This document shows, piece by piece, positions 1 to 6,592 of a DNA stretch of 6,592 bases (its first letter is position 1; each line of letters starts with the position of its first letter). Origin of the DNA: a virus (taxonomy: Duplodnaviria; Heunggongvirae; Uroviricota; Caudoviricetes); the IMG/VR virus record IMGVR_UViG_2778261619_000004, positions 1 through 6,592 of that record, one strand, 5' to 3'. The notes beneath the pieces are model-generated. The model did no database searches. It had not been told where the DNA came from and saw only the letters and a program-made list of their open reading frames with translations. Made by a program: the position numbers and the translations under genes.

Positions 1-1283
1 GTTACCTGAACCACAAAACGGCGATGACGTCCCGCCTGCACATCCACTGTCGCCACAAGGAAATTAACGCCATCCGGCACACTGCGGGAAGGAACTGGCT
101 CTGCCCGCTGCTCAAGCAATTCACTTTTTCGTTGCTCCATGCTGGCGCGGGGAAGATAAGGTAATCCCCAGTCGGTATTGATAACCGTCTTGAGTGTCTC
201 TTCACTTCCGGTTGTCTCGTATTCCTGTTCTGCAGTAAGCAGTTTGTAAACGAGTTGCGAGAGTGTCTGATAAGCAGCTGCCGGACCCTCCATCCAGAAT
301 GACGCAATACGTGAACGCCGGGGATCACCATAACGACTGCCATCTGCATTGATGGATTCACCATCCCGTAGCCAGACCCCACGTCCGTTCAGCTCGCGTT
401 TTTGTTCAGGCAAAATCCGTCCTGAACAGGAAGGACACTGAATATAAGCCGCCTCACTTGCCAGCACAGGATCGGCAATATCACGGAAACCAGCAACCAC
501 ATCGCCGCAGGGCTGAAAATACTCACCACAGTGTGGACATGGCCAGTACCAGCGACGGCGATCGCCACGGTTATAGAGCGACAGGATCCCCGTGGTTGGT
601 GGAGCCTCATGCGGTGAAGTCCGTCGCCATTTCACATCCTTCACATCCCTGCCGGGGGAACTCTCCACAAGCGTCATACCACTGGACATAAATGTGGTGG
701 TACGTTTTGAGGCAAGAGAGAAGGCATCCCCCTCGCCATCAATATCTTCCGGAAAACGGTCATAATCCGTCAGCGCCACGCATTTATAATCTGATGAGGA
801 CATGATATTGACTGACGGCCAGCCGATTTTCAGGTAGTTGCCAGCAAGGAATGTTCTGTCATAAACGTTGTTGTCATTTTTGTTCGGACTCAGGCGACTG
901 ACCACTTCCGGGCTGACGCGAAACGTTCTGGCGAGTCGTTTTTTGGAGTGTTCGCGGGCTTTTTCCTCCGTCATCTGAATGATCAGCATATCCGCAGGAT
1001 CGCAAATCACGTTGTAAATCACCCAGCCGTCAATCAGGCCGATAGTCTTGCCGGTTCGTGCCGGGCCAACAAATATCACTGCGTCGTATTCACGCGAGGC
1101 CAGGCAGTTCATCGGCTCAATAACATACGGTGCCACCAGCGGATCCCACGGGACTGAGTTCCCTGCCCCCATGGGCACCCGCATATACTGAGCAACGGCA
1201 TCAGCAACCCGCATTCGTCTCGGTGCGCGAAGGATATAACCTGAATCGGTTCGTGCTGCCTTTGCGGTTTCCTGATTCAGCAT
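1..1283 (-). CDS. Terminase large subunit, lambda gpA family; N-terminal 427 codons, C-terminus lies beyond window start
   Basis: Hand translation of the minus strand from ATG at 1283-1281 is open through position 3 (absent from the ORF track because no stop lies in-window). Begins MLNQETAKAARTDSGYILRAP; has Walker A-like VGPARTGKT and a Cys cluster WPCPHCGEYFQPCGD...IQCPSCSG that parallels lambda gpA (ACPHCGEEQYLKFGD...LCEHNAC, from memory). SD AGGAGGAG lies 5 nt upstream; start overlaps the upstream stop as TAATG. Confidence 0.88.
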   Translation of the reverse strand, partial: MLNQETAKAARTDSGYILRAPRRMRVADAVAQYMRVPMGAGNSVPWDPLVAPYVIEPMNCLASREYDAVIFVGPARTGKTIGLIDGWVIYNVICDPADMLIIQMTEEKAREHSKKRLARTFRVSPEVVSRLSPNKNDNNVYDRTFLAGNYLKIGWPSVNIMSSSDYKCVALTDYDRFPEDIDGEGDAFSLASKRTTTFMSSGMTLVESSPGRDVKDVKWRRTSPHEAPPTTGILSLYNRGDRRRWYWPCPHCGEYFQPCGDVVAGFRDIADPVLASEAAYIQCPSCSGRILPEQKRELNGRGVWLRDGESINADGSRYGDPRRSRIASFWMEGPAAAYQTLSQLVYKLLTAEQEYETTGSEETLKTVINTDWGLPYLPRASMEQRKSELLEQRAEPVPSRSVPDGVNFLVATVDVQAGRHRRFVVQV

Positions 1284-1774
1284 TACTCCTCCTGCTGTAA
1301 TTCCTCCTCATCATCCGCACCTGCTTCGGTCACCCGCAGGGCTATCTGATCGCGCAGATCATCAATAATGGACTGAACACGGCTCACAGCGGCAGGCTGC
1401 AGACCACAGTCACGTTCCAGAATATCCGGTAATGTCTCCAGCACCTGCACGACCGCTTTTGCCCAGATGGCAAACTCCCGTCTGACATCACTGGCCGGAA
1501 TGAGTTGTGCCGTTTCCTGTTCGAACTTAAGACGCTCACGTTCAGACTGATACCAGGCTTTGCGTTCATGTGGATCCATTTCGCCCTCAGCAACCGGCGG
1601 TGGTAACCCCATAAATTCAGTCAGAATATCGGTCAACCGGTATAGCTTGAGTTTGTCATGTCCACCAGCGGGACGAATGTTTTTCAGTCTTGCCACGACA
1701 GTCTGGCGGTGCAGACCAGATAAAGCCGCCAGTTGATTAATATTCAGCACCAGGTTTTTCAATTCATGATCCAT
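1283..1774 (-). CDS. Terminase small subunit, Nu1-like (N-terminal helix-turn-helix DNA-binding domain)
   Basis: 163-aa ORF directly upstream of and overlapping the large terminase, with strong SD GGAGGA. N-terminus LNINQLAALSGLHRQTVVARLKNIRPAGGHDKLKLY follows the lambda Nu1 pattern (HTH, then GGG, then LY; lambda VNKKQLADIFGASIRTIQNW...GGGKGNEVLY). Acidic C-terminal tail. Sits about 175 bp downstream of the predicted cosN, as in lambda. Confidence 0.8.
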   Translation of the reverse strand: MDHELKNLVLNINQLAALSGLHRQTVVARLKNIRPAGGHDKLKLYRLTDILTEFMGLPPPVAEGEMDPHERKAWYQSERERLKFEQETAQLIPASDVRREFAIWAKAVVQVLETLPDILERDCGLQPAAVSRVQSIIDDLRDQIALRVTEAGADDEEELQQEE

Positions 1775-1805
1775 ATTTCCTCCGGAGAGCTTTAAACATG
1801 CATCG

Positions 1806-1866
1806 TGCGAACAACTTTAAGAAAACGCGTTCGATGTCGAACAAAAAACACTCAATTCGACATACA
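1806..1866 (-). promoter_or_regulatory. Putative cosB: small-terminase binding repeats and A-tracts between cosN and the terminase genes
   Basis: Inverted repeat ATGTCGAA (1834-1841) / TTCGACAT (1857-1864); near-palindrome GTTCGA-TG-TCGAAC (1829-1842); CGAACAA at 1808-1814 and 1838-1844; A-tracts at 1843-1849 and 1865-1874. The position matches lambda cosB (R sites plus IHF bend). Confidence 0.35.
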
Positions 1867-1948
1867 AAAAACAAACAACCATTAATAATCAATAAGATGT
1901 AAAGATGATGGTGGCCGATAAAAATGCAAAAACTAGCCTTTTTCCGCG

Positions 1949-1960
1949 ACGCTCCCGCCC
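1949..1960 (-). other. cosN, cohesive-end nicking site of the cos packaging signal; predicted 12-nt end GGGCGGGAGCGT (phage orientation)
   Basis: Reverse complement of 1931-1990 reads CGGGTCCTCCCGGTGGGGTGGCCTGCCACG-GGGCGGGAGCGT-CGCGGAAAAAGG. This is collinear with the lambda cos region as I recall it (ACGGGTCCTTTCCGGTGATCCGACAGGTTACG-GGGCGGCGACCT-CGCGGGTTTTCGC): 16 of 21 matches across the core, plus the conserved CGGGTCCT and CCGGTG blocks on the cosQ side. It lies between the lysis cassette and Nu1-like gene, as expected. Confidence 0.6.
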
Positions 1961-2160
1961 CGTGGCAGGCCACCCCACCGGGAGGACCCGTCAGCCTGGC
2001 AGCCATGAACGAGCGTCTGATACAGAACACAGAAATAAATCAGGCATCCACTGACGTCACACAGACGGTGCATTGCGTCGACAGGAGTAATGGCGTAAGC
2101 TGAACTCTTGGCTCTCTTGTGCCACCGGCGAATCTTCAGCGGATTATCCTTGGCCGGTTT

Positions 2161-2625
2161 TTATCTGAGGCATTGCTCACGAATGTATAGCTGTGCCCCT
2201 TCCAGTTGTTTTTGCATTATTATCAGCCGCTCTCTGAGGGTGAAATAATCCCGTTCAGCGGTGTCTGCCAGTCGGGGGGCGGCTGCATTACCCACGCCGG
2301 TGGCGGCGGTGGCTTCACGTCCGGTCTGACAGACTGCTCTGATGCGCAACCGACGACGACCAGCGGCAATATCATCACGCAGAGCATCATTTTCAGCTTT
2401 TGCATCAGCTAACTCCCTTGAGTATTTTTCATCCAGTGCAGCAACATCACGCTGGCGCTGCTGCATGTCAGTAATGGTGGCGTTCGCCTGGCTGAGTTTT
2501 TCCTTCGCTTTATCGCGCTGGTCTTTGTAGGAGATGGCGTTATCACGGTAATGATTAACAGCCAATGACAGGCAGACGATGATGCAGATAACCAGAGCGG
2601 AGATAATCGCGGTGACTCTGCTCAT
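2161..2625 (-). CDS. Rz: Rz i-spanin (inner-membrane spanin subunit)
   Basis: 154 aa, [34 protein letters not shown]..., near-identical over most of its length to lambda Rz as recalled ([34 protein letters not shown]...). N-terminal TM helix then coiled-coil periplasmic domain. Start overlaps the R stop (ATGA). Confidence 0.93.
2223..2405 (-). CDS. Rz1: Rz1 o-spanin lipoprotein, embedded out of frame within Rz
   Basis: 60 aa, [24 protein letters not shown]...[28 protein letters not shown], with lipobox LVVVGC and proline-rich mature region. Near-identical to lambda Rz1 ([20 protein letters not shown]...[29 protein letters not shown], from memory). Confidence 0.9.
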
Positions 2626-3098
2626 ACCTCAATCTCTCTGACCGTTCCGCCTGCTTCTTTGAATTTTGCAATCAGGCTGTCAACTTTATGCTCGAACTGA
2701 CCATAACCAGCGCCCGGTAGTGAAGCCCAGATATTGCTGCAACGGTCAATTGCCTGACGAATATCACCGCGATCAATCATCGGTAAAGCGCCACGCTCTT
2801 TAATCTGCTGCAGTGCAACAGCGTCCTGGCTTTTCGGAGAGAAGTCTTTCAGGCCAAGCTGCTTGCGGTAGGCATCCCACCAACGGGAAAGAAGCTGGTA
2901 ACGTCCAGCTGCGGTTGATTTAAGTTGCGGGTTTAGCGTAACAAGTTTGCGAGGATGATCGGAGTAATCTGTGAACAGCTCACCACCTACAATAACGTCG
3001 TAGCCGTGATTGCGGGTTGGCTGTCGCCCGTTATCCGTTCCTTCTGACCACGCCAACATATCGAGGAAAGCTTTACGCTGGGAATTTAGTACCTGCAT
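2622..3098 (-). CDS. R: Endolysin, lambda R-type lytic transglycosylase
   Basis: 158 aa, [57 protein letters not shown]..., roughly 95% identical by eye to lambda R including the catalytic-Glu motif AWSEGT. SD AAGGAG 6 nt upstream; only 3 nt after the holin stop. Confidence 0.95.
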
Positions 3099-3101
3099 AA
3101 A

Positions 3102-3428
3102 TTACTCCTTAGAGCCACCAAACTTATTACCGATTACTCTCATTGCAGCCCCACGAATAGCATCGACACCGATCAGCCCCACCCCACCACCAATGGCAAC
3201 AGAAAGCGATTTAGGCCATCCGACATACTCAAGAGCGGATGCAAAAGTCAGCGTCAGAGCGCCACAGAGTAGAATTTCGAGTGTTTTTCGCTTCCAGCCA
3301 CCACCACCGCCAAAATAGGCAATGCGCAAACCAGCCATAACAATCGACATAATCACTGCGCCCAGCGGTGTGTCTCCACGCCACCAGCTCTGGACCAACT
3401 CCAGCCAAGTATTTGGGTTATGAGGCAT
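3102..3428 (-). CDS. Holin, class I (three TM), distant lambda S relative
   Basis: 108 aa directly upstream of R. Three hydrophobic segments (GAVIMSIVMAGLRIAYF, TLEILLCGALTLTFASAL, SLSVAIGGGVGLIGVDAI) and a charged C-terminal tail. The block LGAVIMSIVMAGLRIAYFGGGGG aligns with lambda S IGAILAFAMAYLRGRYNGG. An in-frame TAA two codons upstream of the ATG rules out a longer N-terminus; no Met-Lys-Met dual-start motif. Confidence 0.8.
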   Translation of the reverse strand: MPHNPNTWLELVQSWWRGDTPLGAVIMSIVMAGLRIAYFGGGGGWKRKTLEILLCGALTLTFASALEYVGWPKSLSVAIGGGVGLIGVDAIRGAAMRVIGNKFGGSKE

Positions 3429-3580
3429 TTGTAGTTATCTCTCACCTCGCCGATACAAGAGGTGCAAATTGAGGGAGTACCACGAACCGCAAATCAGAAG
3501 CGGAAACGTAAAAGAAGCCGAGCCAATGGATAAGAGCTAGATAGACCAAGCCCAACGAATACCAAAGCCCAGAAACGACA

Positions 3581-3602
3581 AAACCCGCTCGACGGCGGGT
3601 TT
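3581..3602. terminator. Candidate intrinsic terminator hairpin (8-bp stem AAACCCGC/GCGGGTTT, 6-nt loop)
   Basis: Arms 3581-3588 and 3595-3602 are perfectly complementary. On the minus strand the stem is followed by UGUCGUUUCU (a tR'-like terminator ahead of the holin); on the plus strand only the UUU of the stem is followed by AAGCUG. The A/U-flanked stem could work in either direction. Confidence 0.4.
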
Positions 3603-3718
3603 AAGCTGTGTGGCGAAGTAACCACTCTTAACAGAGTACTGTATTTTTTGCGTACGCATTAGTATTTTTTGAAGTATTATCAACACCAATTGTTCAAAAC
3701 CATTAAAAGGATGTTGTT

Positions 3719-4753
3719 ATGACTGCATCAGCGACCCCCACTAATATCACTCATAAGTTTATTGTTCACATTATGAACAAGGAACAACAGGGGTTAGCCA
3801 CCATTATTCCTTGTCCTTCAGAAAAACCTGTTCAGCAAGCATCAAAAGACCTCTCTAACGCACTTACTGAAAGGTACTCTGGGAGAGCAGGTAAAGGATA
3901 TGGGAAATTTGAAGATGACCGCGATAGTTACCCTATGGGTAATATCGTTGATGATTATTTCGTAAATAAAACACATAGTTTTTATGATACTAGTATCCGA
4001 ATGATCAATCATTTAAAAGCCAGAGCCGATGATGAATCAATGTCTACTGGTGGTTATGTAATAATTGCCCATAATGAGGTAAATGGAAATCATTATTTGA
4101 TGGTTGCAATCCTAACATCAGCAGTTGGCTCTTCAGTCCACGATTTTGAAATTCAAGAAAGTGAATATCTAGACATTGCTAAACTTCGAGTAGCGGGACG
4201 AATTGACTTAACTGGGCGCCAGAATGGCAAAGAGAGATATATTAGCTTTCTAAAGGGGCAAAATTCAGTAGCAGGTTATTTCAAAAAGTTTTTAGGTTGC
4301 AACGATATTCTAATTGCCAAACAAGAAACAACAAAATTACGGAATGCACTTTTAGAATTTGCTACTGAAAGAGGTTTTGAACCAGAGGCACGTGAAGAGT
4401 TCCTAAATAAGGCTCATGAAAAATTAAAAAATTTAAATCGTTCTGGTGAAACTTTCGACACTCAAATTTTTGCAAACGAGATATGGCCAACTGCTCCTGA
4501 GTTGTTAGTTGAAAAGTTAACCAATGACGATCTGGAGTTCTCTGATGGGTTCGTGCCTGATGGCAACGTTATACGTGGGCTTGTTAGTTTCAAAGGAAAG
4601 TCCAAACATTGGTCTCTGAAATTCGAGCGTGCGGCCTTGCATGATGGCAGCGTTCTTTATGATTCAGAAAACGATAAATTGATACTTACCGAGATTCCGG
4701 ATACGCTAAGATCAGAGATTTTATCAGAATTAGGTGAAGAGGATGAGCAGTAA
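3719..4753 (+). CDS. NdpA/YejK-like nucleoid-associated protein homolog (NA37 family), divergent, prophage-encoded
   Basis: 344-aa ORF with ATG start and AAAAGG SD. Collinear similarity to E. coli YejK recalled from memory: [24 protein letters not shown] vs [41 protein letters not shown] vs [27 protein letters not shown] vs TRYLTFLKGR; KFLGC vs DFLGA; [13 protein letters not shown] vs TIKGTPPNLRDQL. AT-rich codon usage unlike the flanking phage genes. Confidence 0.8.
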   Translation: [344 protein letters not shown]

Positions 4754-5921
4754 CAATCAGAGAACCTTCAAAGACTTAGTGACTATTTACAAGGCCGCTA
4801 CATTTGCAGGTACCCTATCTGAAGCATCACTCATTCTTTCAAACGAGGAGCTCTGTGACATCATCAACGATATCACAGAGAATCCCCATGATTTTGGCAT
4901 CACCCTTGAATCTGGCAACATTGAGTTAGGCCAAACTATAACCTTACATATAACCCCCCCCAAATTACGATTGGGGCAGCTACATTTCTCTTTTAATGAG
5001 TATTTAAAAAATCCTAAAAATAGGATAAAGGAAGCCAGTAACTTCTTTATAATCGAACTTAATTATCACAACAGGGATAAAAAGTCGCCTGCTATTATAT
5101 CCAAGTACAGAGATGTTTTGAGCTTAATTACTTTATTCAAAGATTGTTCTGCTTATTTAGATGAAACAAATTTTGAATTGGTATTCGTCGAATCCAACGT
5201 ACTAAAAATTCCAGTAAATTATTCTAGCGATGATCTTATGAATGTTAATGGAGATCTGATTCATAATTTGATCGCAAACTTTGCAGAAGATACGCATAAA
5301 GATCAAAAACTTACTATTTTAGCAAGTAGTATAAAATCATCATGTGAATCTAAAACTAAAGAAACCTCTTTTTCCTTCATGTTAAGGGATTTAGGACAAC
5401 TTTATGAAAGTTATCAAAAAGGATACAAAGTATTCGTTTCTGGTTTTTCTTACGAGAAAATACTGGATCAGTTACGAGTAGCCAAAATAGAAGAGATGGG
5501 GAAAATACATAAAGTATTCAGTGACATACAAAATCAGATATTAGGTATCCCCGTCGCAACAATTATCGTTGCGACTCAAATGAAGCAGGCTAATGGTTGG
5601 GATAGTCAAGCATTAATAAACACAGCTGTAGTGTTGGGTGCATTGTTCTTCACTATTATGATTCTATTTGTTCTATTTAATCAATGGCAAACTTTAACAG
5701 CAATAAATGATGAGTTAAATCATAAAAAACAACAAGCAGAATATAACTTCAAGGCTATTTACGAAGATATAAAGGATACATTTGATAGTTTAACCACAAG
5801 ATTGCTTGTTCAGAAAATTGTTTTTGCCTCATTAGGAATTATAGTTTTATGTGGCTTATATCTTACATTTAGATTCTACTTTTTACTTACGCCTTATGCT
5901 ATTACATATTTATTTAGCTGA
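4743..5921 (+). CDS. Membrane protein of unknown function: about 265-aa soluble N-terminal domain plus 2-3 C-terminal TM helices; candidate effector partner of the NA37 protein
   Basis: The ORF track gives 4734-5921 from GTG. An ATG at 4743, 5 nt after AGGTGA, is the more likely start; it overlaps the upstream gene stop (TAA 4751-4753) by 11 nt. Hydrophobic segments INTAVVLGALFFTIMILFVLF and IVFASLGIIVLCGLYLTF (plus FYFLLTPYAITYLF) are separated by a charged loop. I recognise no catalytic motif. Very AT-rich. Confidence 0.8.
   Translation: MSSNNQRTFKDLVTIYKAATFAGTLSEASLILSNEELCDIINDITENPHDFGITLESGNIELGQTITLHITPPKLRLGQLHFSFNEYLKNPKNRIKEASNFFIIELNYHNRDKKSPAIISKYRDVLSLITLFKDCSAYLDETNFELVFVESNVLKIPVNYSSDDLMNVNGDLIHNLIANFAEDTHKDQKLTILASSIKSSCESKTKETSFSFMLRDLGQLYESYQKGYKVFVSGFSYEKILDQLRVAKIEEMGKIHKVFSDIQNQILGIPVATIIVATQMKQANGWDSQALINTAVVLGALFFTIMILFVLFNQWQTLTAINDELNHKKQQAEYNFKAIYEDIKDTFDSLTTRLLVQKIVFASLGIIVLCGLYLTFRFYFLLTPYAITYLFS
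4954..4961 (+). repeat. Homopolymeric C8 tract inside the membrane-protein CDS (codons Thr-Pro-Pro)
   Basis: Eight consecutive C at 4954-4961 in an otherwise AT-rich gene. By hand translation, a +1 or -1 slip gives a stop within about 20 codons. Confidence 0.9.
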
Positions 5922-5938
5922 CGGCCAATATGGCCGTC
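5920..5938. terminator. Stem-loop between the convergent stops of the cassette and Q (GACGGCC-AATAT-GGCCGTC); possible terminator or insertion-junction remnant
   Basis: Perfect 7-bp GC-rich inverted repeat with 5-nt loop. It starts inside the cassette stop codon (TGA 5919-5921) and ends 8 nt before the Q stop (5946-5948). Plus-strand tail UAAUAAAUU is only moderately U-rich; minus-strand tail is A-rich. Confidence 0.35.
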
Positions 5939-5945
5939 TAATAAA

Positions 5946-6293
5946 TTACCCATGTATTATATATATAACTGCATCAATAAATCCCAATGCAGCTTGCAAC
6001 TTTTTTCTTATAGTCCCATCAGAGCATTTTCTCTTCTTCGCAATAGTGCGTAATGAGATACCGATAACAAAGTGAGCAATTATCAGCTCATACTCTTCCG
6101 GCTTATATTTACGCAACCTAGCCACACAACTATCTATCATGATGCCTTCATCATCATCACACTGGAGACGTGACTTTTTACCGTGTGGTAAAAGTCCCTT
6201 GAAACCAGCCGCTATCGGCTGCCAGTCCACACCACTATTTTCTGCTGCAGCCCATGCTCCCCAGCGGTCCAATACTTCATACATATCACGCAT
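5946..6293 (-). CDS. Late-gene antitermination protein Q (QuuD / phage 82-like small Q family)
   Basis: 115 aa from ATG at 6293-6291 (the ORF track starts one codon earlier at TTG). MRDMYEVLDRWGAWAAAENSGVDWQPIAAGFKGL...RLQCDDDEG resembles E. coli DLP12 QuuD as recalled (MRDIQMVLERWGAWAAN...SSIAAGFKGL...RPQCCDDD). SD GGAG upstream. Positioned upstream of the lysis cassette as in lambdoid phages. Confidence 0.75.
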   Translation of the reverse strand: MRDMYEVLDRWGAWAAAENSGVDWQPIAAGFKGLLPHGKKSRLQCDDDEGIMIDSCVARLRKYKPEEYELIIAHFVIGISLRTIAKKRKCSDGTIRKKLQAALGFIDAVIYIIHG

Positions 6294-6310
6294 CAACTTT
6301 CTCCACCAAA

Positions 6311-6592
6311 TCAGGCCAGCACGCCAATTGCCAGCGCACGATCAATAAAACGAAATATCAGCTCCAACTGGGAGCCATACTTCTCTTCAAATGCCACGGT
6401 ATCCGCATGCAGCTCGTCGTGATGCTTTCTGCACAAAGGCAACACAAAGAGGTCATGCGCTTTTGTACCCATTCCCCCCTGACCGTGGCCTATCAGGTGG
6501 TGGGGATCATCAGCAGGCTTTCCACAACATGCACACGGCTGTGTCTTAACCCAGCGCGTGTACTTTTCATTAACCCAGCGGCGACGTTTTGG
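6311..6592 (-). CDS. Cys/His-rich nin-region protein, possibly YbcO-like putative nuclease; C-terminal 93 codons, N-terminus outside window
   Basis: Minus-strand frame open from the window edge to TGA at 6313-6311, 17 bp upstream of Q. Translation ...QPCACCGKPADDPHHLIGHGQGGMGTKAHDLFVLPLCRKHHDELH... has a CxxC...HH...C..HH..H cluster. The block HLIGHGQGGMGTKAHDL...CRKHHDEL loosely parallels my recollection of DLP12 YbcO (HIRLTGLCGTGTKPPDL...CSACHDEI). Confidence 0.5.
   Translation of the reverse strand, partial: PKRRRWVNEKYTRWVKTQPCACCGKPADDPHHLIGHGQGGMGTKAHDLFVLPLCRKHHDELHADTVAFEEKYGSQLELIFRFIDRALAIGVLA

Follow-up and report, generated by a model that had tools for sequence, protein, structure and literature searches.

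What is a gene for a nucleoid-associated protein doing in a lambdoid prophage whose host already has one of its own? The question is raised by a stretch of 6,592 nucleotides of a tailed-phage genome (Caudoviricetes; IMG/VR record IMGVR_UViG_2778261619_000004, positions 1 to 6,592), the whole of which is called the window here. A gene for a YejK-like protein of the NA37 family, 344 amino acids (aa) long and identical to RefSeq WP_000127202.1, occupies positions 3719..4753 on the plus strand, and it runs directly into a gene for a 392-aa membrane protein (4743..5921, plus strand). An earlier reading of the bare sequence, hereafter the original prediction, had proposed that the first gene is a diverged, horizontally acquired paralog of yejK inside a prophage and that its DNA-binding fold has been repurposed, for example for recognizing incoming phage DNA or for modulating the host nucleoid during lysogeny. 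We argue here that the two genes, which we call the cassette, probably form a prophage-borne anti-phage defense system of the DS-1/type II PANGU kind, carried as a 'moron', in which the NA37 protein would be the DNA-clamp sensor and the partner the membrane effector. This kind of system was already described in 2025-2026, and an earlier prediction had marked the window proteins as defensive; as a predicted member of this kind, the cassette is diverged and mainly prophage-borne. What our analysis adds is the homology of both genes to DS-1, the size of the subfamily and its association with phages, a cargo hotspot between the antiterminator gene Q and the late promoter region pR', and a juxtamembrane motif in the partner.

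The NA37 protein and its membrane partner

The window protein matches the Pfam family NA37 (PF04245) with 232.9 bits against a cut-off of 24.6 (E 8.3e-69), its residues 15-330 covering positions 1-324 of the 325 of the profile, that is, its full length. It also matches PHROG 3767, 'nucleoid associated protein', and has the two-domain YejK fold with the C-terminal dimerization arm, so the family placement proposed from the letters alone was borne out by the profile search. The proposed divergence was likewise confirmed, as identity with YejK of Escherichia coli K-12 amounts to 27% over 229 aa and the YejK equivalog model (NCBIfam NF001557) gives 164.8 bits, below its cut-off of 341. The composition is as foreign and AT-rich as had been suspected, the GC content of the cassette being 0.355 against 0.506 in the remaining window, with 0.385 in the NA37 gene (0.30 at third codon positions, GC3) and 0.330 in the partner gene. 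We also considered whether the gene might simply be the host yejK lying beside a prophage remnant. This was ruled out, since canonical yejK is present elsewhere, in exactly one copy, in each of 5,426 complete E. coli genomes, and the cassette lies inside a prophage. The complete cassette was found in 16 of the same 5,426 genomes, and an identical copy in strain 19KM1778 lies within a lambdoid prophage that is complete from integrase to tail fiber; the proposed horizontal acquisition holds as well. The published structure of YejK is that of a dimeric ring clamp, with non-specific DNA binding in its basic pore (PMC11229321), and such an architecture suits a sensor that signals, by being free or bound, whether long DNA is present.

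The partner was expected to be a membrane protein, and this too was confirmed. Its open reading frame (ORF) begins at ATG 4743, the start used by RefSeq, and its product is identical to WP_053264141.1; an alternative GTG start at 4734 would yield 395 aa, and most database homologs, like RefSeq, use ATG 4743. No Pfam family matched the protein, and it matches PHROG 5023, whose function is unknown. In an AlphaFold2 (AF2) model with a predicted local distance difference test (pLDDT) score of 80, an N-terminal alpha/beta domain (residues ~1-180) is followed by a helical region (residues 186-277), which ends in a 60-residue helix (217-277), and by a long C-terminal helical hairpin in which both hydrophobic segments sit. 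The first predicted transmembrane helix, at 5604..5690 of the plus strand, corresponds to residues ~288-316 in the hydropathy scan and to AF2 helix 288-335, and its position is kept in about 70 partner homologs; the second lies at 5790..5894 of the plus strand (residues ~350-384; AF2 helix 337-382). The invariant columns of the partner alignment mark the juxtamembrane helix just before the hairpin as the most conserved stretch of the protein (residues 227-281; 5421..5585, plus strand), with the pattern GYxxFVSGFSYxKIxDQLRxAKxEEMGKIHKxFSDIQNQILGIPVATIIVATQMK. This stretch combines the highest conservation with the lowest model confidence (pLDDT ~60), as would be expected of a segment that changes conformation or oligomerizes, and we regard the motif as the probable switch of the protein. 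Its last part, GIPVATIIVATQ, is short and hydrophobic; in some homologs it scores as a third membrane segment, and it may be a re-entrant or switching element.

The start codon of the partner gene lies within the end of the NA37 gene, so that the two reading frames overlap by 11 nt (4743..4753, plus strand) up to and including the NA37 stop codon TAA (4751-4753). Read from the sequence, this overlap suggests that the two genes are translationally coupled and form a single operon.

Homology to DS-1 and a proposed mechanism

DS-1 was reported in the DefensePredictor study of DeWeirdt, Mahoney & Laub (Science 2026), where it was validated in MG1655, and it consists of WP_000355468.1, a 391-aa protein with a zinc ribbon and an NA37 domain, and, encoded next to it downstream, WP_000150292.1, a 404-aa protein whose C-terminus is hydrophobic; they are called DS-1A and DS-1B here (PMC13092281). 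Protection, expressed as -log efficiency of plating (EOP), was 7.6 against Bas1, 2.7 against Bas26 and 1.7 against Bas3 and T3, and the YejK domain was thereby newly implicated in defense, the mechanism not being given in the paper (PMC13092281). We found that both window proteins match the NCBIfam models of the two DS-1 proteins, the NA37 protein matching NF053868 (DS1_1_antiphage, 'nucleoid-associated anti-phage protein') with E 2.8e-15 and the partner matching NF053869 (DS1_2_antiphage) with E 1.6e-19. Similar results were obtained by profile-sequence alignment with hhalign, in which the NA37 protein aligned collinearly with DS-1A over 269 columns (97% probability) and the partner with DS-1B over 275 columns, again collinearly (91% probability, E 1e-6). 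DS-1B in turn matches many members of the partner superfamily with E 1e-12 to 1e-17, which provides bridging sequences. Combined together, these sequence comparisons make both cassette genes remote homologs of both DS-1 genes, in the same order. Furthermore, in the E. coli-wide table of the same study the very NA37 protein of the window, WP_000127202.1, is listed as a 'predicted novel defense gene' with a log-odds of 9.14, and so is the cluster of the partner, WP_053264141.1, with a log-odds of 11.97 (PMC13092281).

A mechanism has been described for systems of the same architecture, the PANGU operons, in which a YejK-like nucleoid protein is combined with an effector (Li et al., April 2026; 10.64898/2026.04.06.716658). 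In type II PANGU the YejK-like protein Pag2A is paired with Pag2B, a protein whose N-terminal domain, named 'DMK', is an acidic DNA mimic and whose C-terminal domain is transmembrane (10.64898/2026.04.06.716658). The E. coli system protects against T4 by abortive infection and needs both genes, neither of which is toxic alone or as a pair, and T4 escapes it by mutations in denA, the gene for EndoII, which degrades host DNA; Pag2A-GFP leaves the nucleoid upon infection, and Pag2A binds the N-domain of Pag2B with a dissociation constant (KD) of 19 nM (10.64898/2026.04.06.716658). Type II PANGU operons have a gap of less than 40 bp between the two genes, a partner with a soluble N-terminal and a transmembrane C-terminal domain, and linkage to defense genes. 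The window genes overlap by 11 nt, the hydropathy scan and the AF2 model divide the partner in just this manner, and relatives of the cassette lie beside GajA/GajB or PtuA/PDC-M01, the site of the window itself being held by PDC-M53 in phage SfII. Thus the broader part of the original prediction, a DNA-binding fold repurposed against phages, is supported by the remote homology to both DS-1 proteins and by the type II PANGU architecture. The two mechanisms it had offered as examples fared worse, as discussed below.

If the cassette works as type II PANGU does, it would presumably have a promoter of its own that is active in the lysogen, and the YejK-like dimer ring would clamp long host DNA non-specifically and be held at the nucleoid of the healthy cell. 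A superinfecting lytic phage that fragments the chromosome would deprive the clamp of its substrate and set it free, and the freed clamp would bind the cytoplasmic N-terminal domain of the partner. The juxtamembrane helix and the two-helix hairpin would then switch to an active, probably oligomeric state which permeabilizes or depolarizes the membrane, a step that we infer for any member of this kind of system. Growth arrest or death before the invader finishes its cycle, that is, abortive infection, would protect the lysogen population and the prophage with it. Lambdoid phages leave the host chromosome undegraded, and induction of the resident prophage therefore need not trigger the system.

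The freed-clamp mechanism has a competitor in a Kiwa- or RexAB-like scheme, in which the DNA of the invader is sensed directly, at the membrane. A clamp held by the membrane partner near the site of DNA entry would load on incoming or replicating phage DNA and either block its replication or trigger the partner, giving superinfection exclusion or immunity that would not depend on degradation of host DNA. In lambda, rexAB sits directly after the repressor gene, and in a Yersinia Mu-like prophage the cassette occupies the same position. DS-1, moreover, protects strongly against the siphovirus Bas1. Clamps of the YejK type bind DNA without sequence preference (PMC11229321), and Kiwa offers a precedent in its DNA-threading KwaB dimer, which is bound to the membrane protein KwaA (PMC11785009). 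Recognition of incoming phage DNA, which was also the first example given in the original prediction, is however not the mechanism reported for the relatives, in which the PANGU YejK-like protein is released when host DNA is degraded (10.64898/2026.04.06.716658), and we consider direct sensing unlikely.

Several observations weigh against the assignment of the cassette to DS-1/type II PANGU-like defense. The equivalog models of DS-1 assign neither protein, the scores being 56.2 bits against a cut-off of 330 for NF053868 and 70.2 bits against 315 for NF053869, and BLASTP identities are low, at 25% over 197 aa (E 3e-10) for the NA37 protein and DS-1A and 28% over 104 aa (E 4e-7) for the partner and DS-1B. 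DS-1A differs further in its N-terminal CxxC...CxxC zinc ribbon (MDITCLECG...CDKCG), the window NA37 protein having no such CxxC pair. A search of both proteins with PADLOC 2.0, a library which predates DS-1 and PANGU, gave no match at E <= 1. The basic pore residues by which YejK binds DNA are R173, R176, K177, R276, R280 and K284 (PMC11229321), and of these six the BLASTP alignment keeps one in place, R280, as window R286; other basic residues, K21, K59, R102, K179 and K206, are invariant across the subfamily. The N-domain of the partner is only mildly acidic, with a net charge of -7 over 180 residues and a pI of 5.2 (0 to -21 among the partner homologs), so that a DNA-mimic surface is no more than a possibility, and a fold search with the partner returned generic helical-bundle matches only, which leaves pore formation a conjecture. 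Membership of type II PANGU is proposed from architecture only, and protection from phages, dependence on both genes, release from the nucleoid and binding of sensor to effector were all observed in relatives and are predictions for the window proteins. A scan with the sigma-70 consensus gave no site 5' of the cassette, and over the whole window fewer sites than in shuffled sequence. Finally, the cassette often adjoins lysis genes in phages, which leaves room for a lysis-related role.

Distribution and insertion site

To follow the pair beyond E. coli we collected 80 genomic and 49 viral loci by searches with an NA37 alignment and added two earlier loci (L001, L002). A partner homolog lies directly downstream of the NA37 gene in at least 74 of these loci, the distance between the two genes ranging from -59 to +10 nt among the relatives, and the homologs are typically ~390-420 aa long with two C-terminal hydrophobic helices at shared positions. 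Pairwise identities of NA37 proteins and of their partners are strongly correlated (r = 0.92, Mantel p = 0.001, 59 distinct pairs), the partner being the faster evolving of the two (mean identity 0.36 vs 0.48 for NA37). At the level of sequence such a correlation shows co-inheritance and is compatible with co-evolution; it also agrees with binding of sensor to effector as in type II PANGU, of which it is no proof. When 1.84 billion representative proteins were searched with a profile, the partner family comprised 1,091 clusters at E <= 1e-3 (clusters at 50% identity). Shorter partner ORFs of 124-264 aa were noticed in four loci (L054, L061, L105 and L111), in which tblastn similarity remains; a frameshift, a truncation or the end of a contig may account for them. 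Jeongeupia wiesaeckerbachi (NZ_CP136946.1) has three NA37 genes on one chromosome (L019, L042, L043), one stand-alone and two in cassettes. The partner-match statistics of the two cassettes are identical, as if one element had been duplicated or had integrated twice. Annotated nucleoid-associated NA37 proteins, 25-33% identical to that of the window, are encoded by 64 deposited phage genomes, among them Pseudomonas F116-like phages, LKA5 and H66, Vibrio phages and Sinorhizobium phi2LM21.

The surroundings of the pair differ from group to group. In the close clade of Enterobacterales, Q is adjacent and convergent in 23 of 23 loci (Q identity 57-100%), and the surrounding lysis and packaging genes vary. 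Yersinia, Klebsiella and Actinobacillus carry the pair in Mu/B3-like prophages, where it has the repressor region on one side and the holin/transglycosylase genes on the other; the Yersinia pair follows the repressor gene directly and on the same strand, and in Klebsiella and Actinobacillus at least one gene lies between. In Pseudomonas aeruginosa the pair is found beside an integrase and a Septu-like PtuA/PDC-M01 pair (PtuA E 2.7e-160), and in one strain beside GajA/GajB of Gabija (GajA E 0, GajB E 5e-265).

A neighbor-joining tree was built from 113 distinct NA37 proteins of these loci together with E. coli YejK and DS-1A; it was made without support values, and the position of its root is uncertain. 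The window subfamily does not take in E. coli YejK. NA37 copies without a partner, which are chromosomal and come from Chitinibacteraceae, Rhodocyclales, Zoogloea, Iodobacter, Deefgea and relatives (L011, L015-L021 and ~50 further genome loci) and share 38-43% identity with the window protein, form one clade among partner-linked, phage-borne lineages, and for want of support values and a certain root this nesting is a lead only. The PANGU preprint reports the opposite polarity in general, stand-alone proteins being ancestral (10.64898/2026.04.06.716658). In a variant of the defense hypothesis, to which we allow a small chance, the subfamily would be a distinct, phage-specialized branch working otherwise than the type II PANGU described and placed just 5' of the late operon in temperate phages. 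The clamp would in that case detect something else than breakdown of the host genome, for instance superinfecting or replicating foreign DNA, and gate a CorA-like two-helix channel through the juxtamembrane helix, and the stand-alone betaproteobacterial NdpA, being nested among partner-linked clades, would be an offshoot or the donor of the mobile sensor lineage.

On its left the cassette is bounded by a conserved block at 3572..3665 of the minus strand, outside the cassette itself, which contains a strong terminator-like hairpin (3602-3581) and is kept in many lambdoid and Stx phages. From its position and established lambda biology we take this block to be the late promoter and terminator module pR'-tR'. 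The hairpin on the minus strand, AAACCCGCCGTCGAGCGGGTTT, is followed by a T-rich tail and, standing 5' of the holin gene, is probably the tR' terminator of the late genes. In phage PhiR5_1 the block abuts the Q gene directly with no insert, and both the window and Shigella phage SfII have a two-gene plus-strand insert between Q and the block. That of SfII has no relation to NA37; its two proteins match the PADLOC candidates PDC-M53A (E 2e-32) and PDC-M53B (E 3e-54). An empty site in PhiR5_1, PDC-M53A/B in SfII and the NA37 cassette in the window identify the Q-pR' junction (window 3572-3665, L139 2501-2592, L140 2501-2683) as a cargo hotspot for alternative candidate defenses, and since related phages have no cassette or other candidates at this site, the cassette is dispensable cargo, a 'moron'.

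Expression signals of the cassette were sought in the same region. A Shine-Dalgarno sequence, AAGGA (3707..3711, plus strand), stands 7 nt 5' of the NA37 start codon. A promoter of its own is presumed from the sequence to lie in 3660..3718 of the plus strand, a region that differs from the cassette-free phage PhiR5_1, where the sole candidate is TATTAT (3675-3680), which resembles a -10 element but lacks a good -35 hexamer. At the other end, the 24-nt gap between the convergent stop codons of the partner gene and Q holds an inverted repeat, CGGCCA-ATA-TGGCCG (5922..5936, 6-bp stem), which by its sequence may be a weak bidirectional terminator limiting read-through both ways; the terminator scan missed it because it lacks a T run.

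The right boundary is the Q gene itself (5946-6296, minus strand; Pfam Phage_antitermQ, E 1.2e-44), convergent with the cassette, and farther to the right lies the end of a DUF968 gene (6311-6472, minus strand; Pfam). The window as a whole is a segment of a lambdoid prophage with its late genes on the minus strand and the cassette on the plus strand, which agrees with the location originally predicted. To the left of the cassette the minus strand carries genes for a lambda-family holin S (3102-3428), lysozyme (2622-3098), Rz (2161-2625) and a DUF1441 protein (1283-1774), and the start of the gene for the large terminase subunit (TerL), which leaves the window at its left end. A 60-aa ORF lying out of frame inside Rz (2223-2405, minus strand) is the Rz1 o-spanin that one would expect here; it has a signal like that of lipoproteins (LVVVGCAS) and a tail rich in proline. 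The window is mosaic, matching none of the complete E. coli genomes from end to end (best coverage 67%); its left 2.2 kb, comprising the TerL start, DUF1441, a gap and the end of Rz, matches other prophages, some of which have a DUF1398 gene inserted at the gap (1775-2160). Scans of the window with Rfam and for tRNA genes found nothing.

The same surroundings bear on whether the cassette serves the phage itself, by remodeling or tethering host or prophage DNA (maintenance of lysogeny, silencing, membrane anchoring) or through a membrane protein that tunes the timing of lysis. Besides the frequent vicinity of lysis genes, as in the Mu-like prophages where the cassette stands just 5' of the holin/SLT genes, this would accord with the NA37 annotations in the 64 deposited phage genomes, some of them apparently in DNA-processing clusters (PMC10305613), and with the modulation of topoisomerases by chromosomal YejK (PMC11229321). 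The window cassette is, however, antisense to the late operon with the pR'-tR' module in between, and closely related phages do without it or carry unrelated defense candidates in its place. Relatives outside phages lie beside integrase and Gabija or Septu genes with no lysis genes nearby, the cassette is rare (16 of 5,426 genomes), and the DS-1 homolog protects when cloned alone in K-12. Nor is a role in nucleoid modulation during lysogeny, the second example of the original prediction, indicated for the relatives (10.64898/2026.04.06.716658). We consider such a phage-serving role very unlikely, and a simple lysis-gene role was rejected as the main explanation because the cassette is on the other strand, the terminator module intervenes and relatives occur outside phages.

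There remains the notion of an addiction module, in which a membrane toxin restrained by the NA37 protein would stabilize the prophage in the manner of a toxin-antitoxin (TA) pair, with no sensing of phage. An overlapping two-gene operon on a mobile element which encodes a potentially toxic membrane protein would be in line with it. In this family, however, the NA37 gene lies upstream of the presumed toxin gene and is large for an antitoxin, an arrangement atypical of type II TA pairs. In type II PANGU, furthermore, neither the genes nor the pair are toxic, and the NA37 protein activates its partner rather than acting as an antidote (10.64898/2026.04.06.716658). We give this explanation hardly any chance, and all three, direct sensing, a phage-serving role and addiction, are less well supported than a two-gene defense of the DS-1/type II PANGU kind.

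Implications and comparison with known systems

If the cassette protects its host, a large and mostly prophage-borne branch would join the nucleoid proteins that guard the host genome's integrity, and a compact natural system (2.2 kb, native context known) would be at hand for examining how a freed DNA clamp switches a membrane effector. The Q-pR' junction of one lambdoid lineage would be marked as a defense hotspot that could be mined for other cargo. For annotation, a prophage product labeled 'nucleoid-associated protein' is not to be read as housekeeping.

Among known proteins and systems, E. coli YejK/NdpA (PDB 9be2) shares the NA37 fold with the window protein and differs in being core, present in all 5,426 genomes, whereas the window gene is accessory (16 of 5,426) and, unlike yejK, shares an operon with a membrane-protein gene. 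In sequence the window protein is nearer to the stand-alone betaproteobacterial NdpA (38-46% identity) than to enterobacterial YejK (27%). Kiwa looks alike on paper, with a membrane protein, a dimeric non-specific DNA-threading protein and antagonism by a DNA mimic; the cassette has neither the fold or sequence of KwaB (DUF4868) nor a four-helix membrane protein such as KwaA. The lambda RexA/RexB pair is a functional analogy only. It, too, is prophage-encoded and combines a DNA-binding sensor in the cytoplasm with a membrane effector that causes abortive infection, both being expressed in lysogens from an accessory position of the phage genome, but RexB has four membrane helices as against the two C-terminal ones of the window partner, and no sequence similarity to RexA/RexB was found, PADLOC giving no match at E <= 1, provided that its library includes Rex models.

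Type II PANGU comes closer. Like the cassette, it is a bicistronic combination of a YejK-like nucleoid-associated protein and a soluble/transmembrane partner, with relatives linked to defense islands, and it is the only mechanistic model for such an architecture. The N-domain of Pag2B is strongly acidic and that of the window partner mildly so, and the main text of the preprint makes no mention of prophages, whereas the window subfamily is mainly prophage-borne. DS-1, finally, resembles the cassette in gene order, an NA37/YejK-domain gene being followed by one for a protein of ~400 aa with C-terminal membrane helices, and in its occurrence in AT-rich accessory DNA of E. coli. Its component A has 391 aa against 344 in the window, and its anti-phage activity was measured, where that of the window cassette is predicted.

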